Shown: positions 29,685-52,436, counted from the first letter of the stretch. The stretch: DNA of 52,436 bases from Hyphomicrobiales bacterium (GCA_038218255.1 JBBRKD010000001.1:1-52436); one strand, 5' to 3'. A program made the numbers and translations. Notes: generated by a model from the letters alone, not told the origin.

Positions 29685-30184
29685 GACGTATCTCCCCGCG
29701 TTAGCATGTCATAAGACGGATCATTGCCGCCGCGCGTGCCTTTGGGAAGCTCCGCGTTCGCGTTATACCATTTTTTATCCGCAATACGCTCGGCACCGTA
29801 ATCGACGACTTCGTTATGCCAAAAGATTAGCCAGTGTTCCGCTACCAATCGTGCTTTTTGTAAATATCGCGCTTGCACCACAAGTTCGCGAGGTTCGTTT
29901 GGCAAATCAATCAAGTGCCAAGCGTCAACATAGGCTTCAACACTGCACATGTCACCATCACCGCTGATGTAGATGTTTGAAATACAATGTCGCGTCGCTG
30001 CCATCGCGCCCATGAAACTCATGGCCACAGAGACAAATCCATCCGCGCCACCACGATAGATAGCGCCCATATCGATTTCGGCATCATCGGCAAAGACGCT
30101 GCGCAACAGCGTCGCATCGCAGCGGTCAAGTGCCCGCGCGTAGGTGTAGAGGAGCTGTGGGATAGCGGAATATGCATCGGTCAT
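29681..30184 (-). CDS. SnoaL_4 / NTF2-like protein
   Basis: 167 aa. IPQLLYTYARALDRCDATLLRSVFADDAEIDMG...HCISNIYISGDGD...VEAYVDAWH fits the SnoaL_4 pattern. The ATG start (30182-30184) shares one base with the TGA stop of the upstream FAH gene (30184-30186). Confidence 0.7.
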   Translation of the reverse strand: MTDAYSAIPQLLYTYARALDRCDATLLRSVFADDAEIDMGAIYRGGADGFVSVAMSFMGAMAATRHCISNIYISGDGDMCSVEAYVDAWHLIDLPNEPRELVVQARYLQKARLVAEHWLIFWHNEVVDYGAERIADKKWYNANAELPKGTRGGNDPSYDMLTRGDTS

Positions 30185-31002: not shown

Positions 31003-31067
31003 CGCGCTTGCCGTTTGACAGTAGGCTGACTGGTCGGGATAGGCCTGTAGGCTTTTGGAAAACCAAC

Positions 31068-33167: not shown

Positions 33168-33172
33168 TGTCG

Positions 33173-36961: not shown

Positions 36962-36970
36962 ACGCCTGCC

Positions 36971-37723
36971 TCATGTTTGTCGCCGACAATCGATCCGCCC
37001 GAGCGGCCCGAAATCGGCAGTTGCATTGTCACCCAAACCCAAAACCACCGAACGGCACATTGCACCGGTTGCCACGAGATCGCCCTTTCGCACCGGACGT
37101 TCGGTTCCGCTGCGGACCCGCACGAGCCATTCCAACGCGGTGCGCGGATCGCCAAGCACGGCCGCCGCATCTCCGGTCTGTTCCACTTGGCCATTGCGCA
37201 TAAATGTGACGCGCAAATTCGCAGGCTCGTTAAGTTCAGCGAGCGCAAACGCCTCGCCGACAATCAAACCCAGTTGCGCCGCATTATCGGCAACGATGAA
37301 CGCAGCGCCAAGTTCAAGCGCATCGTTGCGGCTTGGCCGATTGATCTCTACGCCGATCATCGCACGTCCGATAGCAGCGGCTGGATCGACATCTTCGGGA
37401 TCAGCGGCCATTTCAAACACGATCTCAGGTTCGATCTCTGCCGCGCGCGTTCCCGAGATTGGCGGCAATTCCGCATCTACCGAAACGCTCCCTTGGAAAA
37501 TTCGCCCGTAAATCGGCTCGGCGATCTGCAACATTGCTTGTGCGCCTGCACTTGTCGCCCCGACTTTCCAGCCGATTACCGGCGGCATCTGCGCCGCCGT
37601 TGCGGTCGCGACGGCATAACCCTCGCTCAACGTCAGCTCAGGCGCAGGTCCGACCAGTGCATTGCCCGACAGGCGCGCACTGGCCAGTCGTCTGCCAAAA
37701 TCAGTAGGGACCTCATTCATCAT
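36971..37723 (-). CDS. 2-keto-4-pentenoate hydratase / 2-oxohepta-3-ene-1,7-dioate hydratase-like (MhpD/HpcG branch of the FAH fold)
   Basis: 250 aa, with IGWKVGATSAGAQAMLQIAEPIYGRIF and the C-terminal GDLVATGA typical of the family. Confidence 0.75.
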   Translation of the reverse strand: MMNEVPTDFGRRLASARLSGNALVGPAPELTLSEGYAVATATAAQMPPVIGWKVGATSAGAQAMLQIAEPIYGRIFQGSVSVDAELPPISGTRAAEIEPEIVFEMAADPEDVDPAAAIGRAMIGVEINRPSRNDALELGAAFIVADNAAQLGLIVGEAFALAELNEPANLRVTFMRNGQVEQTGDAAAVLGDPRTALEWLVRVRSGTERPVRKGDLVATGAMCRSVVLGLGDNATADFGPLGRIDCRRQT

Positions 37724-37801
37724 CGGTCGTCATATCCCGTGAGCACACTCTCGCCACACAACTTATACGGCGCCGCCGCGCGCATTCCGGTTATGTCACC
37801 C

Positions 37802-39382
37802 TCAAACCCGTGCATCGAAATCTGCGGCATGCGCGATCGCACGCGCTGCGGCCCTGTCCGCAAGTGCCAAAACGGTAAATGTCGGACTGACGGCGCCGAT
37901 GGTGGGGAATTGCCCGCCACCCGCGACGACCACATTGGGGGCCTCATGCAGCTGCCCGTAACTGTTGACGACCGAACCGCTCGCGTCGGCACCCATGATC
38001 GTGCCCCCTGAAAAATGCGCAAACGTGGTTGTCGGCAGCACCCAGCTTTCGGTCGCGCCAGCGGCTTTCATCACTCGCATGCCAAGCGCGTTGGCATGTG
38101 CCCACAGCTTCCGGCTTTCCGGGTCCAGCGTATAGATAGTACGCGCCAGCGGCATTCCCACATCATCGCGTTCGGATGCCAGCTCGATGCGGTTGGAAGC
38201 ATTGGGCAGGCTCTCGACAATCCCGTTGATGACGGCGAGGTGCTGTGATGCCCGCTTGATGAACCCATCGAGCTCAGCCCCGAACAGATCGGTGCGCGTC
38301 ATCGCAATGCCGAGCAGGTCGTTCGGTTTTAGCGAACCACCAATGCCCCATGAGTAGCTGCCAAATGGCCCTGCCGGACGATCTTTGCGATACTCATCCT
38401 GATTGGTCAGCATCCCGGCCGACAAGCCGAGATGGCATTCGGTTTCCTCTCTGAACAGGCCGTGGACGTTGGCGATGTTGTGCGCGTTGAAGTATTTTCC
38501 GATGAGGCCATTACGATTCGAAACTCCTTGCGGATGTTTCGCATGCCGAGTCGCCAGTAAAAGGCGGGCATTCTGGGCCGCAGCGCCCGCCAATATGATC
38601 AGTGTCGCTGGCTGTTCGAGCGTCTGCCCCTTGGCATTGCGATAAATCAGGCCGCGTGCACGACCATTTTCGTCGAGCGCTATGCCGGTGACCCGGCTCT
38701 GTGCCTTGAAGATTGCCCCGGCCCTGACCGCACTGGGCTGATGAACGACCAACGGATTGGCGAGCGCACCCGTTGGGCATCCGGCATCGCACCAGCCGTC
38801 ATATTGGCATGCCGGGCGGCCCTTATATTCCACTGATGTGACGGCCATCGGCGCAGGCGCGACTCTCATCCCCAGCGCTTCAAACCCGCGCGTCACGATC
38901 TTCCCTTGAGCGAAAGTTTTCAGCGGAGGCATTGGATAAGGCTTGCCCGCAGGTCGCCAAGTCTCGGCTTTTGCATCGCCTGAAATACCCACTTCGTCCT
39001 GTACCGCGTCGTAGTGCGGCCTCAGATCGTTATAAGAAATTGGCCAGTCGAGCCCGCGTCCGTGATCACTGAACATCGTGAAATCGGCCGGCTGCATGCG
39101 AGGCCATCCGGCATAATGATGCAGCGCGGCACCACCAAGACCCCAGCCATTCGACATGTTATGGCCAACCCGGTCAGGCCCGCCAGCGATGACCGGTGAC
39201 CCGCCCCATTTCAACCGCCGTGACCAAATTTGCGAACTGCGCAGGTCGCCCAAAGTCCAGGGTGGTCCCGCGTCGAGGACAATGACCATTCGACCGGCCT
39301 TGGCGAAACGTTCCGCCATAAGCGAGCCGGCCGCTCCTGCGCCCATTATAACGACATCGACATGTTCGAGAGTTTCACCCAC
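37802..39382 (-). CDS. GMC-family FAD oxidoreductase (gluconate 2-dehydrogenase flavoprotein-like)
   Basis: 526 aa with a GTG start, VDVVIMGAGAAGS at the N-terminus and GGTIMG...NVVVAGGGQFPT at the C-terminus. It is a clear paralogue of 44404-45954; both share LDAGP.W.LGDL.SSQIW.RRLKWGG.PV. Confidence 0.85.
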   Translation of the reverse strand: MGETLEHVDVVIMGAGAAGSLMAERFAKAGRMVIVLDAGPPWTLGDLRSSQIWSRRLKWGGSPVIAGGPDRVGHNMSNGWGLGGAALHHYAGWPRMQPADFTMFSDHGRGLDWPISYNDLRPHYDAVQDEVGISGDAKAETWRPAGKPYPMPPLKTFAQGKIVTRGFEALGMRVAPAPMAVTSVEYKGRPACQYDGWCDAGCPTGALANPLVVHQPSAVRAGAIFKAQSRVTGIALDENGRARGLIYRNAKGQTLEQPATLIILAGAAAQNARLLLATRHAKHPQGVSNRNGLIGKYFNAHNIANVHGLFREETECHLGLSAGMLTNQDEYRKDRPAGPFGSYSWGIGGSLKPNDLLGIAMTRTDLFGAELDGFIKRASQHLAVINGIVESLPNASNRIELASERDDVGMPLARTIYTLDPESRKLWAHANALGMRVMKAAGATESWVLPTTTFAHFSGGTIMGADASGSVVNSYGQLHEAPNVVVAGGGQFPTIGAVSPTFTVLALADRAAARAIAHAADFDARV

Positions 39383-39532: not shown

Positions 39533-39841
39533 ATGATCACTGCGACCGTTCGTTTCAAGTTGCGCCCTGGCGTCGATTACGATCAGGCGATCGCAGAAAT
39601 AAAGAACATGATTGCTATGTATCAAAGCCAGCCGCAATTGATCCGCAAACAGATTTGTCTTAATGTCGAAAAAGGCGAAGGCCGCAGCTTCTACCTGTGG
39701 AAAGATCGGTCGGCAGCGGAAGCATTTTTCGAAATGGCACGCCCGATGTTGCGCGAACAGACGGGCGCCGAACCCGAGATCGAATTGTTGGAAACGCACG
39801 TCTTGGTGGATAATTCCACAAACGATGTTTTCATCGCATGA
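39533..39841 (+). CDS. YdhR-like small protein (dimeric alpha/beta-barrel, ABM-type putative monooxygenase)
   Basis: 102 aa with ATG 7 nt after GGAG. GEGRSFYLWKDRSAAEAFFE resembles E. coli YdhR GGIYLFTDEKSALAYLE. Confidence 0.6.
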   Translation: MITATVRFKLRPGVDYDQAIAEIKNMIAMYQSQPQLIRKQICLNVEKGEGRSFYLWKDRSAAEAFFEMARPMLREQTGAEPEIELLETHVLVDNSTNDVFIA

Positions 39842-40692
39842 GCGACCCGCGTCCGATCCTCGTCGTTGGTGGCACCGGAATGCTGGGGCGGCCTGTCGTT
39901 GATGCACTTGCGGCGCGCGCGATACCGGTTCGCGTGCTGTCGCGTGACACGCATGTTCCGAGACCGAATATTCAGTTCGTGCGGGGCGCTGTCGAGGACG
40001 CTAGCGCGCTCGCTGCGGCGGTCGAAGGGTGCCGCGCGGTGCATATCAATCTGCGCGCGACGAATGCCGCCGAACTCAACACGGTCGAAATCGGAGGCAC
40101 CCGCGCCGTGGTAGCGGCCTCGCGGGCGGCAGGAATTGAACGCATTGGTTATGTGTCAGGGGCAGGCATGGAAGCGGCTGATCCCAAATTACCGATGGCT
40201 CATGCCAAGCAATCAGCTGAAGCTGCCGTGCAGGGGTCCGGCGTCGAATGGATGCTATTCAGAGCGACGCATTTCATGGAGTCGCTCGACCTGTTCGTGC
40301 GCAGCGGACGCATCGAACTGATGACCCCGCAGCCGCTTGCCTATCATTATCTTGCGGCCCGTGACTACGGTCGGATCGTTGCTCAGGCCTACCTCGAGCC
40401 GTCAGCTGCAAATCAGGCCTTTACGATGCTCGGCCCGCAACCACTAACGATGCGCGCGGCATTGGACATCTATGTGTCGCGGCTGCACCCGGGGATGAAA
40501 ATCCGGGCCACGCCGACGGCCATTCTGCGTTTGGTCGCCGCTCTGACTGGCAACCGCGAACTCAAACATGCATCGCTCCTGTTCTCGACCTTTCCGAAAA
40601 TACCCGAGACTGGCGATCGTGACATAACCGATACTCTACTTGGCCGCGCTGAAACCACGTTGGCACAATGGTGCGACACGCGCGCAGCATAA
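39838..40692 (+). CDS. NmrA-like / atypical SDR NAD(P)-binding protein
   Basis: 284 aa with ILVVGGTGMLGRPVV Rossmann. ATGA overlaps the upstream gene. Confidence 0.75.
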   Translation: MSDPRPILVVGGTGMLGRPVVDALAARAIPVRVLSRDTHVPRPNIQFVRGAVEDASALAAAVEGCRAVHINLRATNAAELNTVEIGGTRAVVAASRAAGIERIGYVSGAGMEAADPKLPMAHAKQSAEAAVQGSGVEWMLFRATHFMESLDLFVRSGRIELMTPQPLAYHYLAARDYGRIVAQAYLEPSAANQAFTMLGPQPLTMRAALDIYVSRLHPGMKIRATPTAILRLVAALTGNRELKHASLLFSTFPKIPETGDRDITDTLLGRAETTLAQWCDTRAA

Positions 40693-40815
40693 CTTCGGCT
40701 TATGCCGTTGCCCAGATTATCTCCCTCGGCGGAGCTTCCGCAATCAGCCATGTCGCTTGTGCTGACGAAAAAGGGAGTGGTTCGCCTGCATCCCTTCAGC
40801 AATAGGGAGGCTAAC

Positions 40816-43110
40816 ATGAAAAATTCCATTGCTGCGCTGCTTGGGAGCGCGGTTATTTTGCCGCTGATCGCAACGTCGCCGGCCCATTCGCAAACGACCC
40901 CTGAAGCACAAACCGGTGGTATCACGGATATCGTGGTGACCGCGCGGCGGCGCGCCGAGACGCAGCAATCGGTACCGATTGCCATCACTGCCTTCGGTGC
41001 CGAGGCATTGACGGCACGGTCGGTCACGCAAGTCAGCGATCTTGCCGACGCGACGCCGAACCTGACGCGGACCGCAGGGCCGACGGGCGGCAATGATGCA
41101 TTTTTCTTCGTTCGTGGCATTGGCCAAGTCGATTCCAACCCGGCGGCAGATCCCGGTGTGGGCATCTATATTGACGGCGTTTATCTGGCGCGCATTCAGG
41201 GTGCCTCAGTTGATGCATTCGACCTCGACCGCGTCGAGGTGCTGCGCGGCCCGCAGGGAACGCTCTTTGGACGCAATACCATTGGCGGTGCCGTAAGCTT
41301 GACGACGCGCGACCCGGGCAAAGATCTTGCCTTTGCGGGACGCGTTACGGTTGGCAGCCGCAACCGCTTCGATGTTTTTGGTGCCGTCGATCTTCCGCTC
41401 TCCGACACATTGGGCGTCCGCGTTTCAGGCGGCTATCGCAAGCAGGACGGTTGGGGTCTCAACGTTTATACCGGCGACCGTTATTCAAGCGTCAAAAATC
41501 TTAGCGGCCGCATCAAGCTGGTCTGGCAGCCAACGGCCGACGTGAAGCTGTCGCTGTCTGCTGATGCCCTTCAGGCACGTGGCACAAGTGCGCATACAAT
41601 TCTCGCCGGCGCGCGCGCTGGAGCGACGACGCCGTTTGCCGTGCCGCTGCCTTTTGATTTGCTGGCCGATACATCGACCGATCTTTCAAAGAATTTCGAA
41701 TCGATCAAGCCACAGAACGACAATGACAATCGCGGTGTGACAGGAACGCTCGAAGTCGGGCTCGGCGGGCCGACGCTTAAGGCGATCGTCGCTTATCGCG
41801 CGGTCGATCAAACAGCAGCAAACGATTTCGATGGCACCGGTTACCGCCTTTACGACAATATTTTCGATACCCAGTCGAAGCAGCTAAGCGGGGAACTTCA
41901 GTTGCTCGGTGATGCACTCGACAATCGATTAAGTTACGTCCTTGGCGGCTATGCGTTCCGCGAAAACGTCCGTCATAACAACGCGATTTGCCTCGGCACG
42001 AATGTTGGCGGCAACCCTTTTGCAGCCGTGCGCAATCAAGGTGGTTGCATCCGCAACAATCAGTTTTTTACGCTGCATGTTGAAAGCTTCGCAGGATTCG
42101 GACAGGCCAGTTTCAAGGTCACACCACAATTATCGCTTACGGTCGGTGGCCGCTACACGCGCGAAACCAAGCGGCAGGCCTTCGATTTCTTCTTGGACAA
42201 TCGCGACGGCGTCGTTGGATTTATTCCGGGTTTCCCGCCGCCAATCCCGAATTTCCCGACACTGTCACCACGCAACCCTCGGGTTGGGGTGCCGACAACT
42301 TACAATGCCAGCTTTGGTGAGTTTACGCCAAAGCTTGGCATCGACTTCAAACCCTCCGAAAATGTCCTGCTGTATGCGAGCTATTCACGCGGCTTCAAAT
42401 CAGGGGGATTTAATGGTCGGCCATCGCCGACGCCAACGGGCGCATTCCGGCCAATCCAGCAATATGACCCGGAAAAGCTGACCGCCTATGAAGCAGGCAT
42501 CAAGTCGGATTTCTTTGATCGGCGGCTGCGCTTTAATCTTGCCGGTTATTACTCGATTTACGACGGTATTCAGCTACTTGTCATCGACCCAGCAAGCGGC
42601 TTCTTTAATACAGCCAACGCGGGCAAGAGCGAAATTTACGGCTTCGAACTCGAGGTTACGGCGAAGCCAATCCCAGCGATGACAGTTTATTCGAATATCG
42701 GCTACACGCATGATCGTTACACCCAACTCGATCCCCGCGCGGTCGGTTTTACGTTCGCAACCCGCCTGCCTGTGACACCGCGCTGGACGGTCGGCCTTGG
42801 CGGCGATTATCGCGCCGATCTCGGCACCTTAGGATCGCTGACGCTGCGTGCAGACTATAATTATCGCAGCTCGGTCTATTTTGGCGCGACCAACGAACCG
42901 CTTGAATTTGGTGCGTCACGCGGACTGCTCAACTTGCGAGCGACCTACGCACCTGAAAATGAGCATTTCAAACTTTCGGTGTTCGGCCTGAACGTGACCG
43001 ACAAGCGCTATATCACCAATGCCCAGGATGTCCGCAATGCGCTCGGCATCGCCTTTGCCAGTCCATCCTCGCCTGACGAATGGGGCGCTGAGCTTGAGGT
43101 CAAGTTTTGA
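40816..43110 (+). CDS. TonB-dependent receptor (paralogue of 11100-13376)
   Basis: I trimmed the start to ATG 40816, with GGGAGG 5 nt upstream. The signal peptide ends PAHSQT. The TonB box/plug reads ITDIVVTARRRAE...VEVLRGPQGTLFGRNTIGGAV. The C-terminus is ...LEVKF. Confidence 0.9.
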   Translation: MKNSIAALLGSAVILPLIATSPAHSQTTPEAQTGGITDIVVTARRRAETQQSVPIAITAFGAEALTARSVTQVSDLADATPNLTRTAGPTGGNDAFFFVRGIGQVDSNPAADPGVGIYIDGVYLARIQGASVDAFDLDRVEVLRGPQGTLFGRNTIGGAVSLTTRDPGKDLAFAGRVTVGSRNRFDVFGAVDLPLSDTLGVRVSGGYRKQDGWGLNVYTGDRYSSVKNLSGRIKLVWQPTADVKLSLSADALQARGTSAHTILAGARAGATTPFAVPLPFDLLADTSTDLSKNFESIKPQNDNDNRGVTGTLEVGLGGPTLKAIVAYRAVDQTAANDFDGTGYRLYDNIFDTQSKQLSGELQLLGDALDNRLSYVLGGYAFRENVRHNNAICLGTNVGGNPFAAVRNQGGCIRNNQFFTLHVESFAGFGQASFKVTPQLSLTVGGRYTRETKRQAFDFFLDNRDGVVGFIPGFPPPIPNFPTLSPRNPRVGVPTTYNASFGEFTPKLGIDFKPSENVLLYASYSRGFKSGGFNGRPSPTPTGAFRPIQQYDPEKLTAYEAGIKSDFFDRRLRFNLAGYYSIYDGIQLLVIDPASGFFNTANAGKSEIYGFELEVTAKPIPAMTVYSNIGYTHDRYTQLDPRAVGFTFATRLPVTPRWTVGLGGDYRADLGTLGSLTLRADYNYRSSVYFGATNEPLEFGASRGLLNLRATYAPENEHFKLSVFGLNVTDKRYITNAQDVRNALGIAFASPSSPDEWGAELEVKF

Positions 43111-43143
43111 TTGCTCGACGCTCCTTCTAAACGGTTTGTTGCG

Positions 43144-43623
43144 TTACGCTGGATACGCCAAACCGTCATTGAAAGCCGCGCGCAGGATCACCGGGGTCAG
43201 TAATACACCAATCAAGACCGAATAGGCGATCTTGAAGGCAAGAACGATAAGGAACGGCCAGTCACCCGTGGTTGGCCAAATCAGCGCCAGCAGGCCCACG
43301 CTTATCGGTGCCAGCACGAGAGTCATGACGATTGCTAACATAAGCCCGCGGAGGATGACATTGCCGGGTAGGCGACGTTTGTAGGCCAGCGGACCGATGG
43401 CGCCTTTCCGAACCCGCGCGCGCGTCAGCAATGTAAGCCCGATCGTCATCATAAGCGAGATCATGAACGTCGTCGGGAGCAGATCGAATGCCAGCCCCTG
43501 CATGCCCCAAAGCCCGATTTTGGTCAGCCCCCCGAACATCAGAAACACGAAACCACCCCCAACAATGGCATTCAGCGCCACTCCGATCCTGCTCTCGACT
43601 GCGATATAACGGTCATGTGTCAT
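43144..43623 (-). CDS. Small integral membrane protein, four predicted transmembrane segments, unknown function
   Basis: ~159 aa with four hydrophobic stretches: GVALNAIVGGGFVFLMFGG, LLPTTFMISLMMTIGLTLL, LMLAIVMTLVLAPISVGLLALIW and FLIVLAFKIAYSVLIGVLLTPVIL. I recognise no family. Confidence 0.55.
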   Translation of the reverse strand: MTHDRYIAVESRIGVALNAIVGGGFVFLMFGGLTKIGLWGMQGLAFDLLPTTFMISLMMTIGLTLLTRARVRKGAIGPLAYKRRLPGNVILRGLMLAIVMTLVLAPISVGLLALIWPTTGDWPFLIVLAFKIAYSVLIGVLLTPVILRAAFNDGLAYPA

Positions 43624-43819
43624 TACCACCCCCTCACCACCAGCACGCTATAGGCCAAAGCTGAAAAGCTGGGACATCATGCGAAATGGACGCACTGTCC
43701 ATACCCCCGGTTATGATCGTCGCGGCGTTCGCCATACCCAGCATTCATGTCCACGCCCGCATTTGCTATTTGCACAGGGCAAACAGAGCGAGGACTAGCG
43801 GGTTTGAAAAGGACCGGTC

Positions 43820-44410
43820 ATGGCCATCGTATCAAGAAGGAAGGCAATTGCTGGCATCGGCGCGGGCGGCGCGATTGGCCTTGGGTTACTGGCGTTCACC
43901 GATCAGGGACGGACCCTCTGGCGCACACCGGAGGAAGCCCGCAAAGCCGGACTTGGCTTCAAGACGCTTGACGCGGGCGAAGTCGCAACCCTCGAAGCGC
44001 TGGGCGAAACCCTGCTTCCGGGCGCACGCGAAGCCGGGATCGCCCATTATGTTGATCACCATCTGGCTCAGCCATCCGTCGACAGCCTGTTGATGATCCG
44101 TTATCTGGACATCCCGCCGCCCTATCTCAATTTTTATCGTGCCGGGCTGGCTGCGCTCAACGGCTTCGCGAGCGCGAAAAACGGCAAGATATTTGGCGAT
44201 CAGGACGCGGGCAATGCAACCGACATCGTGCGGGCAATATCTAGCCCCGACCCCGCTGCGGCTCCCAAAGACTGGCGCGGCCCGCCTGCTTCAATCTTCT
44301 ACTTCGTGACTCGCGCCGACGCCGTTGATGTTGTGTATGGCACTGAAAAGGGAACGGAAAAACTCGGCCTGCCTTATATGGCGCACATTCTTCCCGAGAC
44401 GCCGTGGTGA
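43820..44410 (+). CDS. Gluconate 2-dehydrogenase subunit 3-family protein with a twin-arginine signal
   Basis: 196 aa with ATG 6 nt after AAGGA. The Tat motif is SRRKAIAGIGAGGAIGLGLLAF. It lies directly upstream of, and overlaps, a GMC flavoprotein gene, the usual pairing for this family. Confidence 0.75.
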   Translation: MAIVSRRKAIAGIGAGGAIGLGLLAFTDQGRTLWRTPEEARKAGLGFKTLDAGEVATLEALGETLLPGAREAGIAHYVDHHLAQPSVDSLLMIRYLDIPPPYLNFYRAGLAALNGFASAKNGKIFGDQDAGNATDIVRAISSPDPAAAPKDWRGPPASIFYFVTRADAVDVVYGTEKGTEKLGLPYMAHILPETPW

Positions 44411-45954
44411 ATAAAAGCGCGGATTTCGTCATTGTCGGCGCTGGCGCGGCTGGCAGTCTTTATGCAGCTATACTCGCCAAAGCGGGGAAGTCGGTCATCA
44501 TGCTTGATGCCGGACCCGGCTGGATATTGGGTGATCTGGCATCGTCGCAAATCTGGGCACGGCGGTTGAAATGGGGCGGGGCGCCCGTTGAGTTTCGCGG
44601 TAATCATCATGGTTTCGGGCATAATCTCAATACCGGCTGGGGCCTCGGCGGTGCCGCGCTCCATCACTATGCGACATGGCCACGCATGCACGTCGAAGCG
44701 TTTGCAACGCGCAAACTTTACGAGCGCGGGCAGGATTGGCCGATCGGCTATGACGATCTGCGCCCATTTTACGATCGGATTCAAGCCGATGTCGGCATTT
44801 CGGGTGATGCACAGGCAGAAATCTGGCGACCCGAGGGTGCTCCCTATCCACTGCCGCCCATGAAGCGATTTGCCCAGGGGCGATTACTGGCAGCGGGCTT
44901 CGAAAAGCTGGGGCACCCGACTGCGCCGCTGCCCGTGGGAATCGTGTCGCAGGACTATAAGGGCCGTCCTGCGTGCCAAAACGACGGCTGGTGTGATGCC
45001 GGTTGCCCGATCGGGTCACTCGCAAATCCGCTAGCGACCTATCAAGCCGAAGCTGCTGCTGCCGGTGCCGACATTCGCGCGAATGCAACGGTCAAGCGGA
45101 TTTTGCCGGCCTCGAAAAACCGGGCGGCCGGTGTCGTCTTCACCGATGCGAAGCAACAGGAGCGCCGCCTCGAAGCCGGCACCGTCATCCTCGCCACATC
45201 GGCGATCCAGAATCCGCGCCTGATGCTGGCCTCGGCATGTCCGGAATGGCCAAACGGCGCGGGCAATGCCGCCGATCAAGTTGGCCGAAATTTCATGCTC
45301 GACAGCTTGGCGCTGGTCTACGGATTGTTCGACGCCGAAACCGAGCCGCACATGGGCGTGTCCGCAGGGCAAGTCACGAACCGCGTCCGATATGCCGGTG
45401 ACCGTCCGCCCGGAACGCCATTTGGAAGCTATCAGTGGCAGGTCGCGCCCTCCATGAAACCAAGCGACATATTCGGCATGGCGATTTCGCGCGCTGACCT
45501 GTTCGGCTCTGAACTCAGCGCCTTCGTCACCCGTGCCAGCCACCACATTGCCAGCATGGTGGCGATGATCGGTGCCTTGCCCGATCCCACTAACCGCGTC
45601 GTCCTATCGGACAAGCGCGACCATTTCGGGGTTCCGCTGGCACGCGTCGAGCATAAGGTCGATGATGCGACAATGACGTTGTGGTCTCACTGCAAGGACG
45701 AAGGCGTTGCAGTTATGAAGGCAGCGGGCGCGACCGAAAGCTGGACTGGACCCTATAACGCCGGACACTTGATCGGCGGCACGCTGATGGGCGATGATCC
45801 TGCAACTTCTGTGACCGACAGTTTCGGGCGTGTCCATGGAATCGACAATCTGGTCCTTGCAGGATCGGGCCTGTTTCCGACCAGTGGCGGGATCAGTCCG
45901 ACCTACACCTTGCTCGCGGTTGCGATGCGATCCGTCGGCGTATTGCTGCGATGA
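44404..45954 (+). CDS. GMC-family FAD oxidoreductase (flavoprotein partner of the Tat subunit)
   Basis: 516 aa with GTG starts at 44404 and 44407. It has ADFVIVGAGAAGS and no signal peptide of its own. The C-terminus reads GGTLMG...NLVLAGSGLFPTSGG. Confidence 0.85.
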   Translation: MVNKSADFVIVGAGAAGSLYAAILAKAGKSVIMLDAGPGWILGDLASSQIWARRLKWGGAPVEFRGNHHGFGHNLNTGWGLGGAALHHYATWPRMHVEAFATRKLYERGQDWPIGYDDLRPFYDRIQADVGISGDAQAEIWRPEGAPYPLPPMKRFAQGRLLAAGFEKLGHPTAPLPVGIVSQDYKGRPACQNDGWCDAGCPIGSLANPLATYQAEAAAAGADIRANATVKRILPASKNRAAGVVFTDAKQQERRLEAGTVILATSAIQNPRLMLASACPEWPNGAGNAADQVGRNFMLDSLALVYGLFDAETEPHMGVSAGQVTNRVRYAGDRPPGTPFGSYQWQVAPSMKPSDIFGMAISRADLFGSELSAFVTRASHHIASMVAMIGALPDPTNRVVLSDKRDHFGVPLARVEHKVDDATMTLWSHCKDEGVAVMKAAGATESWTGPYNAGHLIGGTLMGDDPATSVTDSFGRVHGIDNLVLAGSGLFPTSGGISPTYTLLAVAMRSVGVLLR

Positions 45955-48900
45955 AGCTCGACGACCGCTATACCAACGATGACGGCCACGCGATCCTGAA
46001 CGGAACGCAAGCGCTTGTCCGCCTGACGCTCGAGCAGGCGCGGCGTGATCGTGCGGCGGAGTTGCACACAGCAGGCTACGTGACCGGTTATCGTGGATCG
46101 CCGCTCGGCGGCGTGGACAGCATGTTTGGCCGGGCGGCTCGCCATACCGACGCAGTCGATATTCGATTGCAGCCGGGCCTAAACGAAGACCTCGCGGCCA
46201 CTGCCGTTCTCGGTACGCAGCAGGTTGGGCTTTACCATAAACCGATGCACGACGGTGTTTTCGCTTTATGGTATGGCAAGGGTCCTGGCGTCGATCGCTC
46301 GGGCGACATTTTCCGGCATGGTAATCTCCACGGCGCTTCAGCGACGGGTGGCGTCGTGCTGTGCGCCGGTGACGATCACATGGCCAAATCCTCGACGACC
46401 GCGCATCAGAGCGAGTTCGCGTTCGTCGACGCGATGATTCCGGTCCTTCACCCCGCGTCTATCGAAGAAATCGTGACCTATGGTCAATTCGGCTGGGCAA
46501 TGTCGCGCTTTTCGGGATGCTGGACGGCATTGAAACTCGTCACCGACCTCGTCGATAGCAGTGAAACCGTCGATCTTGCCGCGCTGCGGCCCGCGATTAT
46601 CGTCCCCGATTTCGAGCAGCCGCCGGGCGGTCGCAATATTCGCTCGCCCGATCCTTGGATCGAACAGGAACGCCGCCTGCATCAGGACAAGTTGCCTGCG
46701 GTGCTGGCGTTTGCGCGCGCGAATCACATCGACCGCGTGGCACTCGTGGCCGCCAAGCCGCGCCTTGGCATTGTCACCACTGGAAAGAGCTATCGCGACA
46801 CGCGTGCGGCGCTCGCCTTGCTCGGATTTTCCGAAACCGAAGCAGCAGCAATTGGCATCACGATCTACAAGGTCGGTATGGTCTGGCCGCTTGAGCCGAG
46901 CGTTTTGACTGAGTTCGTCGACGGGCTCGAAGCGATATTGATCGTCGAAGAAAAGCGACCATTAATAGAGGGGCAAGTACGCGACATCCTGTTTGACCGT
47001 CCCGCGAGCCGCCGTCCCAGACTCAATGGCAAATCGCTCTTGCCCAGCCACGGCGATTTGTCGCCGACCGTGATTGCTCGCGCTATCGCACACCAGCTCA
47101 CAGCGATGGGCATCGCGCGCGACTGGCCAAGTTTCGAGCACGATATGCTCCCCAAGGCACCGGTTACGCGCGTCCCTTATTTCTGCTCGGGGTGTCCGCA
47201 CAATATTTCGACCCAGGTTCCAGCAGGCAGCCATGCTATGGCCGGCATCGGCTGCCACGGCATGGCGCAATTCATGGGGCGCGACACCGACACTTTCGTC
47301 CAGATGGGTGGGGAAGGCGTGAACTGGATCGGGCAGGCCGGGTTCGTCGAGACCAATCACGTCTTCCAGAATCTGGGCGATGGAACCTATTTCCATTCAG
47401 GCGTGCTTGCCGTTCGTGCGGCGATCGCAGCAAAGGTCAACATCACCTATAAAATCCTGTTCAATGACGCCGTCGCAATGACCGGCGGGCAACCGATAGA
47501 CGGCGAATTGTCGCCGCAATCGATCAGCCATCAGATGCGCGCAGAGGGCGTGAAGCGCATCGCAATCGTGACCGACGATCCGGCAAAATACGTCGATCAA
47601 CCTGCATTTGCTGCTGGCGCAACGATCCATGCGCGTACCGATCTCAACCTCGTTCAGCGCGAGCTGCGCGAAATTCCCGGGACCACAGTCATCGTCTATG
47701 ACCAGATGTGCGCGACCGAAAAGCGTCGGCGGCGCAAACGCGGCCTGATGCCGAACGCTGTTGAGCGGGTTTTCATCAACCCGCTGGTCTGCGAAGGTTG
47801 CGGTGACTGTTCGGTCAAATCGAACTGCCTTTCGGTCATCCCGCTCGATACCGAATGGGGCCGCAAACGGCAGATCGACCAGTCGAGTTGCAATCAAGAC
47901 ATGAGCTGCATCGAGGGGTTTTGCCCCAGTTTCGTGACTGTAAAGGGCACATTGCGCAAAGCTGACAAGCGCAGCCTGCCAACGTTGGACGTCGCGCTCC
48001 CCGAACCTGCGCTGCCGTCGCTTGACCATCCGTACAGCGCATTAATCGTCGGCATTGGCGGCACTGGGGTGGTGACGATCGGGGCCATCCTAGCGCAGGC
48101 CGCCTTGATCGACGGTAACGCGTCGGCGACGCTCGATCAGACCGGCCTTGCGCAAAAAGGCGGACAGGTGATCAGTCACCTCAAGATCGCGGCTACCGCC
48201 GACGCGATCGATACCGTGAAAGTGCAGCCGGGCGCCGCAGACGTCGTCATCGCGGCTGACATCGTTGGCGCGACGAGCAGCAACGGGCTTTCGGTGCTAG
48301 GCCGCCAAAGCCAAGTGATCGTAAACACGGAAACAACGGTAACAGGCGCATTCACTGCAAACCGCGACTTCGCCATTCCCGGCGACGAGCTGCTTGCAAT
48401 GCTCTCGGATCGTGCTGTCGCGACGCCCATTGCGGCGACCGCGCTTGCCCGCCGCCTGTTGGGCGACGCCATTGGCGCGAACATGGTCCTAACCGGCTTC
48501 GCCTACCAGTGCGGCCTCATCCCAGTGGCCGTTGCATCGATCGAAGCCGCGATCCGGCTGAATGGTGCGGCGGTGGACATGAACTTAGCGGCATTCCAGA
48601 TCGGGCGGATCGCCGCGCATAACCCAGATATATTGGAAATGGACAAAAAAATCACGCGGAGCGCGGCGAACCTTGATGACATAGTAACAAAGCGTGCAGC
48701 GTTTCTTGGCGACTATCAAAACGCCGAATATGCGGGTCGCTATACGGCGTTCATATCGCAAATTCGGTCCGCTTCGGGTTCACCCGAACTGGTCGAAACC
48801 GTTGCGCAAAATCTGTTCCGCCTCATGGCCTATAAAGACGAGTACGAAGTAGCGCGTCTTCACCGAGACCAGACCGCACGGACTCGCATTCTTGACCAGT

Positions 48901-49283
48901 TCGAACACGGTGCGACGCTGACTTATCATCTCGCGCCACCACTTTTTTCCAAACGTGACCCCGTCACCGGCCATTTGCGTAAACGCCGCTTTGGCGCGTG
49001 GATGAGCACGGCCTTTGCCGTGCTGGCCCCGATGAAGCGACTTCGCGGCACGCCGCTCGACGTGTTCGGTTATTCGGCCGAACGTTGCACCGAACGTCAG
49101 TTGATCACGCAGTATAAGGATGCGGTCATCCGGGCGTTGGAGCGCGATGGCGTGGATCACGCGATAGTAGTTGCGAAATCCGCCAGCGATATACGCGGCT
49201 TCGGCCATGTGAAAGAGGCCAGCATCGCCCGTGCGCGCGCGGTCTGGGACACAACGGCATCAACCGAATTGGTTCCGGCGTGA
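45951..49283 (+). CDS. Indolepyruvate:ferredoxin oxidoreductase family protein (fused alpha/beta, ~1100 aa 2-oxoacid:acceptor oxidoreductase)
   Basis: 1110 aa. The N-terminus is LNGTQALVRLTLEQ...GYVTGYRGSPLGG. The Cys clusters are FCSGCPHN and CEGCGDCSVKSNC...CNQDMSCIEGFCPS. ATG 45951 overlaps the GMC stop (ATGA). Confidence 0.85.
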   Translation: MKLDDRYTNDDGHAILNGTQALVRLTLEQARRDRAAELHTAGYVTGYRGSPLGGVDSMFGRAARHTDAVDIRLQPGLNEDLAATAVLGTQQVGLYHKPMHDGVFALWYGKGPGVDRSGDIFRHGNLHGASATGGVVLCAGDDHMAKSSTTAHQSEFAFVDAMIPVLHPASIEEIVTYGQFGWAMSRFSGCWTALKLVTDLVDSSETVDLAALRPAIIVPDFEQPPGGRNIRSPDPWIEQERRLHQDKLPAVLAFARANHIDRVALVAAKPRLGIVTTGKSYRDTRAALALLGFSETEAAAIGITIYKVGMVWPLEPSVLTEFVDGLEAILIVEEKRPLIEGQVRDILFDRPASRRPRLNGKSLLPSHGDLSPTVIARAIAHQLTAMGIARDWPSFEHDMLPKAPVTRVPYFCSGCPHNISTQVPAGSHAMAGIGCHGMAQFMGRDTDTFVQMGGEGVNWIGQAGFVETNHVFQNLGDGTYFHSGVLAVRAAIAAKVNITYKILFNDAVAMTGGQPIDGELSPQSISHQMRAEGVKRIAIVTDDPAKYVDQPAFAAGATIHARTDLNLVQRELREIPGTTVIVYDQMCATEKRRRRKRGLMPNAVERVFINPLVCEGCGDCSVKSNCLSVIPLDTEWGRKRQIDQSSCNQDMSCIEGFCPSFVTVKGTLRKADKRSLPTLDVALPEPALPSLDHPYSALIVGIGGTGVVTIGAILAQAALIDGNASATLDQTGLAQKGGQVISHLKIAATADAIDTVKVQPGAADVVIAADIVGATSSNGLSVLGRQSQVIVNTETTVTGAFTANRDFAIPGDELLAMLSDRAVATPIAATALARRLLGDAIGANMVLTGFAYQCGLIPVAVASIEAAIRLNGAAVDMNLAAFQIGRIAAHNPDILEMDKKITRSAANLDDIVTKRAAFLGDYQNAEYAGRYTAFISQIRSASGSPELVETVAQNLFRLMAYKDEYEVARLHRDQTARTRILDQFEHGATLTYHLAPPLFSKRDPVTGHLRKRRFGAWMSTAFAVLAPMKRLRGTPLDVFGYSAERCTERQLITQYKDAVIRALERDGVDHAIVVAKSASDIRGFGHVKEASIARARAVWDTTASTELVPA

Positions 49284-49693
49284 CGGTGATTTTTACCCGC
49301 CAAATGCCACTGCGCTTCGCCCACTGTGACCCGGCAGGGATTGCCTATTATCCCCGCTATTTCGAAATATGTGATGCCGTCATCGAGGATTGGACTGCCG
49401 AATGTTTCGGCGTGCCGCGTCAGGCGATGCACGGTGAAATGAAGCTCGGCATGCCGACGGTCGATCTCCACGCGCGGTTCAGCGCGCCAAGCCGGTTGGG
49501 TGATCGCCTCGATCTTCAACTGGTTGTCACGGGCGTCGGCCGGACTTCGGTCGACCTTGCGATCACGGTTGGCTGCAACGCTGAACCACGGTTCAGCGTA
49601 ACCTACCGGCAAGTTCTCATGGCAATGGATACGGCGCGCGCAGTCCCGTGGCCCGAAGATTGGCGAACGAAATTGATGGCAGCACTTGCATGA
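49280..49693 (+). CDS. 4HBT/YbgC-type hotdog-fold acyl-CoA thioesterase
   Basis: 137 aa. RFAHCDPAGIAYYPRYFE contains the catalytic Asp motif. The GTG start overlaps the IOR stop (GTGA). Confidence 0.75.
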   Translation: MTVIFTRQMPLRFAHCDPAGIAYYPRYFEICDAVIEDWTAECFGVPRQAMHGEMKLGMPTVDLHARFSAPSRLGDRLDLQLVVTGVGRTSVDLAITVGCNAEPRFSVTYRQVLMAMDTARAVPWPEDWRTKLMAALA

Positions 49694-51288
49694 TCCGCGA
49701 CACTTTCATCGAGGACCTCTTACCGCCGCCCGATGCGCAGCCTGAATTTCTGTTTGATCTCTCCGAGCTCCACTATCCCGAACGGTTGAACGCGGCAGCC
49801 GAATTGGTCGACTGTCATGTCGCGGCGGGGCGCGGTGATCAACTTGCAATCATCAATGATGTGGGCCGCTGGACCTACGCTGATCTAAAGCGCTTGTCGG
49901 ACGCAATAGCTTACCTCCTTATCCACGACGAAGGGCTGATCCCGGGCAACCGCGTCCTGCTCCGCGGCCCCAATTGTGCCATGCTGTTTGCGGCATGGCT
50001 TGGGGTTTTGAAGGCAGGTGGTATTTCAGTGACGACAATGCCGATTCTGCGCGCGGGCGAAATCGCGACCATCATCGACCGCGCCGAGGTCACCCACGCG
50101 ATCGTCGATGCGCGCTATCTCGCTGATTTTGAGACTGCTGCCGCACCGGTTCGCTCGGTTATGACGTATGATGGCGATGCAGGGACCAGTGCCCTTGAAC
50201 AGCGAATCGCATTTGCCCCGCCCGATTTTGTCGCTGTGCTGACCGCGCGCGATGACGTGGCGCTCATCGCCTTCACGTCGGGTACCACGGGCAAACCAAA
50301 AGGTTGCGTCCATTATCATCGCGACATCCTTGCGGTTGCTGATACATTTGCTCGACACATCCTTAAACCTGAGTCCGGCGATCGATTTTGCAGCTCGGCA
50401 CCAATCGCGTTCACGTTCGGCTTGGGTGCCTTGCTGATTTTCCCATTTCGCTTCGGCGCGACGTCGGTAACCGTCGAGGCTCCGAACCCGGCTGGACTGA
50501 CCGACGCCATCGACCGGTTCGGCGTGACCACGTTGTTTACAGCGCCGACCGCTTACAAAGCGATCCTGGCAGCCAGTCCGCAAAACAAACTGGCATCGCT
50601 CAAGACATGCGTTTCGGCGGGCGAGCATCTTCCCGCTGCGACATGGCAGGCGTGGAGGGACGCGACCGGCATCTGCCTAATCGACGGTATTGGCGCCACC
50701 GAAATGATGCATATTTTTATTTCTGCATCGGGCGACTCCATCCGACCCGGATCGACTGGGCGCGCCGTCCCGGGATTTAAGGCCTGCATCCTCGATGCTG
50801 AAAATCGCCCGACCCACACGGGAACCGGACGTCTGGCAGTCAAAGGACCGACCGGCTGTCGCTATTTCGATGACGCCCGCCAAAGCGATTATGTAATCAA
50901 CGGTTGGAACGTTACGGGCGACACTTTCCGCATCGATGAAGACGGCTATTTCTGGTATGTTGCCCGGTCCGACGACATGATCATTTCGTCGGGCTACAAT
51001 ATCGCTGCGCCCGAAGTCGAGAACGCGCTCTACAGCCACCCGGCAGTTGGCGAATGCGCAGTCGTTGGGGCCCTGTGCGCAGACCGCGGTATGGTGGTGA
51101 AGGCCTTTGTCGTTGTCGCTTCGGGGCACGTTGGATCCGCTGATCTCGCTGTTGATATACAAGACCATGTCAAACGCATGATCGCGCCCTACAAATATCC
51201 GCGCGCTATCGAATTTGTAACGGCGCTCCCTAAAACGGCAACCGGCAAGCTGCAACGTCATGTGCTTCGGGTAAAGCCAAACCGGTGA
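49690..51288 (+). CDS. Aryl-carboxylate-CoA ligase of the benzoate / 2-aminobenzoate / 4-hydroxybenzoate-CoA ligase family
   Basis: Carries IAFTSGTTGKPKGCVHYHRD, IDGIGATEMMHIF, SGYNIAAPEVE and APYKYPRAIEFVTALPKTATGKLQR, which match the BadA-type family as I recall it. ATG 49690 overlaps the thioesterase stop (ATGA). Confidence 0.82.
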   Translation: MIRDTFIEDLLPPPDAQPEFLFDLSELHYPERLNAAAELVDCHVAAGRGDQLAIINDVGRWTYADLKRLSDAIAYLLIHDEGLIPGNRVLLRGPNCAMLFAAWLGVLKAGGISVTTMPILRAGEIATIIDRAEVTHAIVDARYLADFETAAAPVRSVMTYDGDAGTSALEQRIAFAPPDFVAVLTARDDVALIAFTSGTTGKPKGCVHYHRDILAVADTFARHILKPESGDRFCSSAPIAFTFGLGALLIFPFRFGATSVTVEAPNPAGLTDAIDRFGVTTLFTAPTAYKAILAASPQNKLASLKTCVSAGEHLPAATWQAWRDATGICLIDGIGATEMMHIFISASGDSIRPGSTGRAVPGFKACILDAENRPTHTGTGRLAVKGPTGCRYFDDARQSDYVINGWNVTGDTFRIDEDGYFWYVARSDDMIISSGYNIAAPEVENALYSHPAVGECAVVGALCADRGMVVKAFVVVASGHVGSADLAVDIQDHVKRMIAPYKYPRAIEFVTALPKTATGKLQRHVLRVKPNR

Positions 51289-51511
51289 TCGGGAAATGCG
51301 GGGTATATCCAAACAGGAAGGAACATAGCTTGCTGGGGCAAACGATATCTACCGACTTTGATCCATTTACGCAGCAGAGTATGAGGCGACAACCTACCAG
51401 CCTGATACGCTTTTGCCGAACGACTGCGTGTATACGATCAGTACTTCGTTAGAGAGATAAACCAAGGTCCGATTGTTCGACGTGTATAGCGTAACAAGGT
51501 TTGCAGGATTT

Positions 51512-52264
51512 ATGTCAAAACGACCCCGCTTTGACGTTACCGAAACGGTCAAGGAACTCCGCGCGGTCTCTACGATGGGCGCTCTTGCACGCGCGCTTGA
51601 GTCGATCATTCCCAAGCTGGGCTTTCGCTATTTTGCGTTGATACACCACCTTCATCCCAAAGACTGGTCAAGAATGGCTATCTGCCTCCATAATTGTGAG
51701 CCAGATTGGCCGATCGCTTATGCGGGGCGCAAACTCTATCGCGGCGATCCGATCCTGCGTGCTTGCACGCTGACAAATGTCGGCTTCAAATGGGGCGAAA
51801 TATCCTCGGTAATACCCACGACGGAGGCCCATCGCCATTATTTCGACCAGTTCTCTGAAGCTGGAATTGGCGACGGCATGACGATCCCTGCCCACATTCC
51901 AGGCGAGCCGCCTGGATCGTGCAACTTCGCGACAGCGAAGGGGCAGCCGTTTCCCGATCAAAGCTATATCTCAGCGCTTATTGTCGGTGCCTTCGCGTTT
52001 CAGGCTGCCCGCCGAATTGCAGGATTTGTAAAAGTGCGTCCACCCACTGAGATGCCGTTGACTGTGCGGCAACGAGATTGCCTTTTGTGGGCCATGCGCG
52101 GTAAAACCAATTGGGAGATTGGACAAATACTCGGGCTGAGCCGTGACACCGTTAGCCAGCACCTAGACATGGCACGCATTCGCTATGGAGTGACGAAGCG
52201 TTTGCAACTGGCCGTGCGGGCAATTTATATGGGCGAGATTTCGCTCGACGACGCGCTGTATTGA
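51512..52264 (+). CDS. LuxR-family quorum-sensing-type regulator (autoinducer-binding domain + GerE HTH), solo
   Basis: 250 aa from ATG 51512. The ligand domain has W-x3-Y...DP...W...G at the exact TraR spacing: DWPIAY, GDPIL, FKWGEI and GIGDG. The C-terminus reads LTVRQRDCLLWAMRGKTNWEIGQILGLSRDTVSQHLDMARIRYGV. Confidence 0.85.
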   Translation: MSKRPRFDVTETVKELRAVSTMGALARALESIIPKLGFRYFALIHHLHPKDWSRMAICLHNCEPDWPIAYAGRKLYRGDPILRACTLTNVGFKWGEISSVIPTTEAHRHYFDQFSEAGIGDGMTIPAHIPGEPPGSCNFATAKGQPFPDQSYISALIVGAFAFQAARRIAGFVKVRPPTEMPLTVRQRDCLLWAMRGKTNWEIGQILGLSRDTVSQHLDMARIRYGVTKRLQLAVRAIYMGEISLDDALY

Positions 52265-52268
52265 TCCC

Positions 52269-52436
52269 TGAAGCGTCCCGGGTTTTCCGGAGGCTCCTAT
52301 CTGTGAGAAGGAGCTACGATGACGACAAGGAACAAGTTTTCGCCTGAGGTCCGTGAACGGGCAGTCAGAATGGTTGGTGAGCACCGGGCCGATTACGGCT
52401 CGGAGTGGGCAGCAATGACCTCGATTGCGGCGAAGA
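52269..52436 (+). mobile_element. Left end of an IS3-family insertion sequence (boundary approximate)
   Basis: OrfA starts at 52319. IS3 elements usually begin with TG about 40-100 nt upstream of orfA, and TGAAGCGTCCCGGGTTTTCCGG at 52269 is a candidate left inverted repeat. The right end is outside the window, so the repeat cannot be confirmed. Confidence 0.45.
52319..52436 (+). CDS. IS3-family transposase OrfA (5' fragment, runs off the right edge)
   Basis: ATG 5 nt after AAGGAG. The translation [39 protein letters not shown] is the typical IS3/IS911-type OrfA HTH N-terminus. Confidence 0.8.

Follow-up and report, generated by a model that had tools for sequence, protein, structure and literature searches.

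A Tat-signal-bearing GMC dehydrogenase pair joined to an indolepyruvate:ferredoxin oxidoreductase-family gene within a rearranged proteobacterial catabolic island

We analyzed a 52,436-nucleotide stretch of DNA from a Hyphomicrobiales bacterium (GCA_038218255.1 JBBRKD010000001.1:1-52436; hereafter the window), in which a gene pair for a dehydrogenase of the GMC flavoprotein family is joined to a gene for a fused indolepyruvate:ferredoxin oxidoreductase (IOR)-family protein. These genes belong to a five-gene chain on the + strand (43820-51288) that encodes, in order, a small subunit, the GMC flavoprotein, the IOR, a thioesterase and an acyl-CoA ligase, and that is held together by four stop/start overlaps. 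The small "hitchhiker" subunit (43820-44410, +; 196 aa) matches PF13618 (Gluconate_2-dh3) with an E value of 2e-13, and its TGA stop overlaps the GTG start of the gene for the flavin adenine dinucleotide (FAD)-dependent catalytic subunit (44404 or 44407-45954, +; 516 aa; Pfam GMC_oxred_N/C). The TGA of this second gene overlaps the ATG of the IOR gene (45951-49283, +; 1110 aa; NF009589; Pfam POR and DUF6537) by four bases, as ATGA. The IOR stop in turn overlaps the GTG of a gene for a hotdog-fold (4HBT) acyl-CoA thioesterase at 49280, as GTGA (49280-49693, +; PF13279/PF03061), and the thioesterase TGA overlaps an in-frame ATG at 49690 of the gene for a benzoate-CoA-ligase-like, AMP-forming acyl-CoA ligase (49648-51288, +, with 49690 as the likely start). 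The ligase contains AMP-binding domains and matches TIGR02262 at 343.7 bits, slightly below the cut-off of 375. An earlier note on this DNA had named the first three genes and their overlaps. The Pfam and NF009589 matches bear out the identities, and the junction sequences show the GTG/TGA and ATGA overlaps. Since the overlaps run on through the thioesterase and ligase genes, the unit consists of five genes rather than three. A scan of 43000-52436 for promoters and terminators returned counts at chance level only.

A 4100-base contig from a separate soil-metagenome study matches positions 45073-49172 at about 99% identity. Because this contig crosses the GMC/IOR junction, the junction is real and not an assembly artefact. 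A short Logan contig from a second metagenome (run X2) skips exactly 99 bases at 47258-47358 inside the IOR gene; this in-frame gap of 33 codons may be a minor population variant or an assembly quirk.

The N-terminus of the small subunit reads MAIVSRRKAIAGIGAGGAIGLGLLAF, in which the twin-arginine motif S-R-R-K-A-I at residues 5-10 is followed by the hydrophobic stretch AGIGAGGAIGLGLLAF. The arginine pair is at least 90% conserved among 38 aligned homologues, and the position of the motif is conserved as well. A strict twin-arginine pattern was matched by 60 of the 78 homologues found at related loci, and most of the other full-length homologues have the arginine pair in a variant context. The flavoprotein itself has no signal peptide and opens directly with its FAD-binding fold. 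These features are consistent with the proposal, made in the earlier note, that the small subunit carries the signal-less flavoprotein across the membrane by way of twin-arginine translocation (Tat). The AlphaFold2 model of the small subunit has a mean confidence score (pLDDT) of 87.7, and a phmmer search of the sequences in the PDB returned spurious matches to repeat proteins only. The subunit was assigned to its family because of its Pfam match and the gene order. About 12 small subunits (L026, L028, L031, L052, L059, L071, L072, L077, L088, L091, L094 and L099; loci are designated by number throughout) have a lipobox-like L-x-G/A-C directly after the hydrophobic region, which suggests that part of the family may be membrane-tethering Tat lipoproteins.

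The GMC flavoprotein is related at only about 30% identity to enzymes of solved structure. Its best matches in the PDB are the large subunit of fructose dehydrogenase (FDH; 7w2j) and the alpha subunit of the FAD-dependent glucose dehydrogenase (FAD-GDH; 6a2u), with E values of 1e-54 to 1e-58. The FAD-binding GAGAAG motif starts at residue 12, within the sequence VIVGAGAAGS, and H455, which is invariant, aligns with the region of the FDH active-site histidine. The cysteine motif RPACQNDGWCDAGCPIG aligns with the cysteine-rich loop of FDH and FAD-GDH. Within it, C191-x5-C197-x3-C201-P is invariant in 33 GMC homologues, and the three cysteines occupy three of the four cysteine positions of the homologous FDH motif. 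In the FAD-GDH of Burkholderia cepacia (BcGDH), Cys212, Cys218 and Cys222 of this loop bind a surface 3Fe-4S cluster, while the fourth cysteine forms an inter-subunit disulfide between alpha and gamma and is not conserved across the family (PMC6719666). This fourth cysteine is absent from the window GMC. We infer that the window flavoprotein carries a 3Fe-4S cluster on C191, C197 and C201.

The IOR matches NF009589 at 1485.6 bits (cut-off 816) and NF009588 at 1463.4 bits (cut-off 952) over residues 2-1103. It contains the thiamine pyrophosphate (TPP) motif GDGTYFHSG, invariant in the IOR alignment (A2), together with NDAVAMTGGQ. The Fe-S cysteines at 412/415/435/587, 614/617/620/626 and 647/653/658 are invariant in the same alignment. 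No signal peptide is present, and the protein is predicted to be cytoplasmic. A sequence search of the PDB detected no relative of it. We considered whether the protein, at 1110 residues versus about 1155, had been truncated at the junction. This was rejected: the N-terminus matches P0123 and the shortfall consists of small loop deletions. The window IOR is about 50-54% identical to generic fused IORs of Proteobacteria, and in a neighbour-joining tree it groups with the IORs of GMC loci, apart from the generic ones. Within the fused IOR family, it falls in a cluster-associated branch.

Gluconate-2-dehydrogenase-type enzymes include a multihaem cytochrome c subunit, and the earlier note had reported that the window has no CxxCH-rich open reading frame (ORF). 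Our six-frame scan of the 52-kb window agrees: CxxCH never occurs more than once in an ORF, and the four single matches fall in a MarR gene or are antisense shadows. The comparison was extended to relatives of the pair, of which more than 2000 were scored overall. A scan of species-representative genomes with the single GMC sequence returned only relatives of 23-33% identity, hence an alignment-based scan of the same genomes was used. This gave 80 loci with flavoproteins 49-67% identical to that of the window, each covered up to 10 kb per side, and three further loci from protein look-ups brought the set to 83 related loci at 49-83% identity. The small-subunit gene lies directly upstream of the GMC gene in about 75 of the 83, and a TonB-dependent receptor (TBDR) gene is present in 51. 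No multihaem cytochrome c gene was found at any of the 83 loci within 10 kb on each side. The only CxxCH-rich neighbour encodes a CCP_MauG di-haem cytochrome c peroxidase, in L038 from Iodidimonas muriae. The two-gene form without a linked cytochrome c gene is thus the norm for a large clade. Therefore nothing has been lost at the window locus, and the notion that the missing cytochrome is special to it falls away.

Distant pairs (about 33% identical) on Burkholderia and Komagataeibacter plasmids likewise have no cytochrome c gene. In L184 (Komagataeibacter europaeus plasmid) and L185 (Burkholderia multivorans plasmid), the gene order is TPP-requiring protein, enolase/mandelate-racemase-like protein, hypothetical protein, small subunit and GMC, an order that recalls the racemase/dehydrogenase/TPP-decarboxylase logic of the mandelate pathway. 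A collection of plasmids yielded generic IORs only (at most 53% identical) and distant GMC pairs only (at most 48%).

The electron acceptor of the pair could still be a membrane-bound multihaem cytochrome c of the classical three-subunit kind, with its gene at an unlinked locus. Conservation of the 3Fe-4S relay, which in FAD-GDH serves cytochrome c, speaks for it, as does the fact that just 52 kb of the genome is visible. However, a dedicated subunit should sometimes stay linked to its partners, as it does in characterized three-gene operons, and the count of linked cytochrome c genes was zero in the 83 related loci, with up to 10 kb per side. We regard this explanation as unlikely. Since no cytochrome c gene is linked and the cysteines for the 3Fe-4S cluster are invariant, the acceptor is taken to be encoded elsewhere.

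Of the 83 loci, 14 have an IOR-family gene no more than 10 kb from the pair, in at least four arrangements. The loci that bear them come from Alpha- and Gammaproteobacteria and from a metagenome-assembled genome (MAG) labelled Deltaproteobacteria. Four have a fused IOR 48-58% identical to that of the window (L018, L061, L070 and L097), with a GMC gene directly following the IOR gene in L070. The remaining ten have split genes (L038, L041, L043, L044, L051, L052, L059, L065, L067 and L082): an IorA-like protein of about 715 aa with TPP and Fer4 domains and an IorB-like protein with POR and DUF6537 domains. The ten matches of about 715 aa were considered as fused IORs and rejected as such, being split IorA-like proteins with separate IorB-like partners. 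In L038 and L043 the genes run IorA-IorB-small subunit-GMC, tightly packed on one strand. As a reverse control, 80 loci of generic fused IORs (47-54% identical to that of the window; from Pseudomonas, Bradyrhizobium, Burkholderia, Massilia and others) were examined, and none contained the small subunit/GMC pair. The recurrent co-location of the pair with IOR-family genes is a solid gene-context association.

A "putative cyclase" gene (PF04199, the kynurenine formamidase/isatin hydrolase family) accompanies the split IorA/IorB genes near the pair in L038, L043, L065, L067, L082 and L183. Genes for a luciferase-like monooxygenase and MaoC dehydratases occur in most of the IOR loci that bear PF04199, and RidA is also found with split IorA/IorB in L065 and L067. 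The PF04199/IorA/IorB neighbourhood looks like a second conserved module.

The surroundings of the window IOR became clearer when its closest relatives were compared. In the four loci on long contigs with the most similar IORs (L181, L182, L183 and L186; 57-62% identical) and in L061 (58%), the IOR gene heads one operon. Behind it come, in order, genes for a NicX-like protein and an alpha/beta hydrolase, for an ADH_N_2 enone reductase, a zinc-dependent alcohol dehydrogenase or both, and for an acyl-CoA dehydrogenase. In three of these five loci, a GMC paralogue, here called GMC2, and an HpaH-like hydratase sit between the IOR and the NicX-like gene. Past the operon lie a convergent LysR gene and then genes for an FAA hydrolase, a SnoaL_4 protein, an NmrA-like protein and a TBDR. 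All of these operon partners are present in the window. GMC2 (37802-39382, -; 526 aa) is followed downstream on the same strand by a 2-oxo-enoate hydratase-like FAA-family protein (HpaH-like; 36971-37723), the NicX-like protein (35918-36961; labelled from precomputed hits on its orthologues), the alpha/beta hydrolase (35112-35921), the ADH_N_2 enone reductase (34147-35115), the zinc-dependent alcohol dehydrogenase/quinone reductase (33173-34246) and the acyl-CoA dehydrogenase (31968-33176), the block from GMC2 to the last gene spanning 31968-39382. The next genes, at 29681-31961, encode the LysR regulator (30975-31961, +), which is convergent with the acyl-CoA dehydrogenase gene and divergent from the FAA hydrolase gene (30184-31002, -), and the SnoaL_4 protein (29681-30184, -); this trio is also present in L019, L183 and L186. 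On the other side, a small ydhR-like ORF (39533-39841, +) precedes genes for the NmrA-like NAD(P)-binding protein (39838-40692, +) and the TBDR (40702-43110, +), an outer-membrane receptor with Plug and TonB_dep_Rec_b-barrel domains. The order NmrA then TBDR (39838-43110 in the window) is conserved in L018, L023, L181-L183 and L186. The sole difference in the window is that the IOR gene, with those for the thioesterase and ligase, now lies behind the gene for the exported-type GMC.

The closest relative of the window GMC (L187, 83% identical) has no IOR. Its genes encode, in order, a TBDR, a four-transmembrane protein, the small subunit, GMC, two AsnC-type proteins and a FAD_binding_3/OYE fusion. 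A 540-aa ORF after the GMC gene of this relative was considered as an IOR fragment and rejected, since it is the FAD_binding_3/OYE fusion. L018, the relative at 76%, likewise lacks a GMC-to-IOR junction; its IOR is another paralogue and lies with an acyl-CoA dehydrogenase gene on the opposite strand. Because the closest IORs head the NicX-like operon and the 83% relative has no IOR, the IOR has been relocated behind GMC in this lineage only. The coupling of GMC to IOR is a recent, lineage-specific rearrangement within a conserved island. The operon sits in a catabolic island of about 22 kb (about 29.7-51.3 kb of the window), rearranged versions of which are found in Sphingomonadales and in other Proteobacteria. 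The functional link between GMC and IOR that the earlier note had suggested therefore stands in part: IOR genes are indeed found repeatedly next to the pair, in various arrangements and lineages, but the direct GMC-to-IOR coupling is confined to this lineage.

GMC2 is 52% identical to the window GMC and has the same cysteine triad. It had been described as lacking a Tat partner, and indeed no small-subunit gene adjoins it in the window. Eleven clear orthologues are alike in having no small-subunit partner. GMC2 forms a stable lineage, seen in L018, L019, L021, L024, L026, L028, L031, L060, L061, L181, L183 and L186. It lies directly after the IOR gene in L061, L183 and L186, with a 4-base overlap with the IOR stop in L183 and L186. 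GMC2 may be cytoplasmic, or it may make shared use of the small subunit, whose gene lies a few kb off. These arrangements raise another explanation, by which a cytoplasmic GMC-type flavoprotein, GMC2 especially, would take the low-potential electrons of the IOR through its 3Fe-4S cluster in place of ferredoxin. Besides the adjacency and overlap of IOR and GMC2, the IOR-GMC order of L070, the retained cysteine triad and the consistent absence of an adjoining small-subunit gene speak for it. On the other hand, such a partnership would be without precedent, the window GMC is coupled to a Tat subunit, and GMC2 may simply use the small subunit encoded nearby. In L182, moreover, the place beside the IOR is taken by a Fer4 ferredoxin-like protein and a flavoprotein resembling ferredoxin reductases. 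We consider it very improbable that GMC proteins serve the IOR in this way. The L182 proteins, encoded directly upstream of the IOR at L182:5757-9882, are a molybdopterin oxidoreductase, a multi-Fer4 protein and the ferredoxin-reductase-like flavoprotein, and they are candidate redox partners of the IOR.

It could also be that an unrelated IOR-thioesterase-ligase block was rearranged behind GMC by accident and that co-transcription has no meaning. The island is visibly rearranged among genomes, and the junction is missing from both the 83% and the 76% relatives. Against this, at least four arrangements with IOR genes near the pair are seen across Alpha- and Gammaproteobacteria and the Deltaproteobacteria-labelled MAG, the reverse control gave 0 of 80, and the usual operon partners of the IOR are in the same window. 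An accident is, in our judgement, quite improbable.

We favour, with moderate confidence, the reading that the exported pair and the cytoplasmic IOR serve one pathway in different compartments, probably on intermediates that are not consecutive, and that the IOR block was moved behind GMC. By analogy with FAD-GDH and FDH, the small subunit would escort the folded flavoprotein, with FAD and 3Fe-4S cluster in place, through Tat to the periplasm, where GMC would oxidize a hydroxyl group on a compound that has entered through the neighbouring TBDR. Electrons would pass from FAD to the surface 3Fe-4S cluster and on to an acceptor encoded elsewhere, which could be a membrane component or a soluble cytochrome c, for example. 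The IOR, in the cytoplasm, would oxidatively decarboxylate a 2-oxoacid of the pathway to an acyl-CoA and CO2, as do EdcC and Ior1 (below), and the acyl-CoA dehydrogenase, reductases, thioesterase and ligase may then process this product. The hydratase beside GMC2 resembles 2-oxo-hept-4-ene-1,7-dioate and 2-keto-4-pentenoate hydratases, a likeness that fits a 2-oxoacid intermediate for the IOR.

Several points weigh against this reading. The 83 loci are not phylogenetically independent, and with a few IOR genes per genome one would be expected near the pair by chance in roughly 1-2% of cases, which is a rough figure. The tree that sets the window IOR apart from the generic ones has no support values. 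A Foldseek search of the PDB with the small-subunit model returned nothing at E < 1, the gamma subunit of BcGDH included, and a Pfam scan of the NicX-like ORF in the window gave no match. No gene for an inner-membrane transporter is evident in the operon. The sequence of the window occurs in metagenome DNA runs only. In the literature, we found no description of the dehydrogenase/IOR pairing, the conserved island or the orphan GMC2 lineage.

A more direct scheme would make the two enzymes consecutive. In such a two-compartment alpha-oxidation, GMC would produce a 2-oxo acid from a 2-hydroxy acid in the periplasm, and after import the IOR would convert it to an acyl-CoA one carbon shorter. Gluconate 2-dehydrogenase, the namesake of the family, does oxidize a 2-hydroxy acid. 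The 4-base GMC/IOR overlap in the window, the minimal, packed IorA-IorB-small subunit-GMC operons of L038 and L043 and the TPP-requiring and enolase/mandelate-racemase-like neighbours of the distant Burkholderia and Komagataeibacter pairs all point the same way. However, the closest relatives of the IOR are coupled to the unpartnered GMC2 and the NicX-like/hydratase operon rather than to the exported pair, 69 of the 83 pair loci have no IOR-family gene within 10 kb, the operon contains no importer gene, and the solved relatives of the flavoprotein act on sugars. Since this branch of IORs is tied to the GMC2/NicX-like operon and most pairs occur without an IOR, direct alpha-oxidation is less likely than a pathway of non-adjacent steps, and we hold it to be doubtful. 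With equal reserve, we put forward the broader proposal that a Tat-exported 3Fe-4S GMC enzyme and an IOR might form an unrecognized two-compartment module, an oxygen-independent alpha-oxidation entry to beta-oxidation, with operons of the types IorA-IorB-small subunit-GMC and small subunit-GMC-IOR as examples. In it, a TonB-imported hydroxy compound or 2-hydroxy acid would be oxidized in the periplasm and the 2-oxoacid converted to an acyl-CoA in the cytoplasm; in a sharper variant of the same tentative proposal, GMC2 would be the physiological electron partner of the IOR.

We compared the pair with the FAD-GDH of B. cepacia (gamma-alpha-beta; 6a2u/8hdd), the FDH of Gluconobacter (7w2j) and gluconate 2-dehydrogenase. 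As in FAD-GDH and FDH, the GMC subunit is signal-less and has the three-cysteine 3Fe-4S motif, the conserved histidine of the FAD region and the catalytic histidine, and the gene for a small twin-arginine PF13618 subunit, which would carry the flavoprotein out, lies directly upstream. In contrast to these enzymes, the window pair and its clade are without a gene for a multihaem cytochrome c (three CxxCH), and the partners in the window are a TBDR and catabolic genes, not sugar-oxidation genes. Unlike BcGDH, the window GMC also lacks the cysteine of the alpha-gamma disulfide. The pair would thus be expected, by analogy, to work like FAD-GDH and FDH up to the Fe-S cluster and to differ in its acceptor. 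A precedent for the two-gene form is the glucoside 3-dehydrogenase of Agrobacterium and Rhizobium, which is reported to consist of a catalytic subunit and a Tat hitchhiker, to have a 3Fe-4S cluster and to use a separately encoded cytochrome c as acceptor; the pair was set beside it by description only. The context of that enzyme is sugar and glycoside metabolism, as opposed to the IOR/ring-cleavage island here.

For the IOR, the nearest characterized analogue comes from an aerobic Sphingomonad, Novosphingobium tardaugens. This IOR-family protein, EdcC, is genetically required once the estrogen A-ring has undergone meta-cleavage, at the step where a 2-oxoacid is decarboxylated and ligated to CoA; Sphingomonas sp. 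KC8 has a homologue (KC8_05315), and edcC is clustered with genes for an acyl-CoA dehydrogenase, MaoC and a TBDR (PMC7793797). The window IOR resembles EdcC by gene context alone, in that an acyl-CoA dehydrogenase, a TBDR and hydratases are encoded nearby. The edc cluster contains cytochrome P450 and extradiol dioxygenase genes and no GMC pair, whereas two GMC flavoproteins, the NicX-like protein and the HpaH-like hydratase are encoded in the window island. In Phaeobacter, Ior1 forms phenylacetyl-CoA from phenylpyruvate (PMC5577590). The window IOR may be likened to it and to the classical archaeal IorAB in their TPP/Fe-S oxidative decarboxylation of arylpyruvates to acyl-CoA, and the aryl-type CoA ligase and hotdog thioesterase of the operon are also features of phenylacetate pathways. 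Unlike this group, however, the window IOR falls in a branch separate from generic proteobacterial fused IORs. An arylpyruvate-type substrate, as first suggested, is not specifically indicated by any of these data, and EdcC acts on a ring-cleavage 2-oxoacid. With EdcC and Ior1 described, the view that fused IORs of aerobic Proteobacteria are largely uncharacterized is partly outdated.

A gene for a conserved membrane protein of 161 aa with about four transmembrane segments by hydropathy (43144-43629, -) lies divergent from the operon. Homologues occur beside the pair in L018, L021, L023, L024, L027, L030, L070, L074 and L182, and a 157-aa ORF takes the same place in L187. The gene is found in either orientation in the closest relatives, and the protein has the conserved motifs LWG..G.AFDL.PT.FM and LPR..LRA. 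A role as membrane anchor, or as importer for the pathway, is conceivable. We also considered it as a haem-bearing substitute for cytochrome c; this was rejected, as it has no conserved histidine or cysteine.

Other genes of the window were noted in passing. A LuxR-type regulator with an autoinducer-binding domain is encoded 185 bp downstream of the operon (51473-52264, +); in the window we noticed no gene of the luxI type. The segment 27586-29252 (+), about 17 kb upstream of the IOR gene, encodes a glyoxalase-fold protein and a 4-hydroxyphenylpyruvate dioxygenase (TIGR01263, 373 bits, above the cut-off), the latter being a further enzyme of this region that uses an arylpyruvate. Genes for a 785-aa FAD_binding_3/OYE fusion, an SDR and a MarR protein (6342-9939, -) are syntenic with L186:1725-5367, upstream of the IOR operon there, and L187 has this fusion after its GMC pair. 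Amidohydrolase_2 proteins are also encoded in the window, as are the alpha subunit of a Rieske oxygenase (19977-21272) and a second TBDR (11100-13376). Taken as a whole, the window looks like one large catabolic island whose parts have been rearranged.

Each enzyme described here is a member or near-member of a known family, and the absence of a linked cytochrome c is ordinary. The present result is a well-supported gene-context finding. It concerns two large groups of enzymes to which genome annotation gives names only by analogy, namely the pairs annotated as "gluconate 2-dehydrogenase subunit 3 / GMC oxidoreductase" and the fused or split IOR-family proteins of aerobic Proteobacteria. For both, it provides handles: the pair has no cytochrome c of its own, it travels with IOR genes, and one branch of IORs resides in a TonB-receptor-linked island. 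The results point to genes for joint knock-out and to an electron acceptor outside the locus, and the arrangements occur in cultured strains: Iodidimonas muriae JCM 17843 has IorA-IorB-small subunit-GMC, Variovorax sp. GT1P44 has the NicX-like module with the small subunit and GMC after it, and Halieaceae bacterium WSDMB12 is a third carrier. Were the direct logic from 2-hydroxy to 2-oxo compound to acyl-CoA true, it would be a new route into beta-oxidation.

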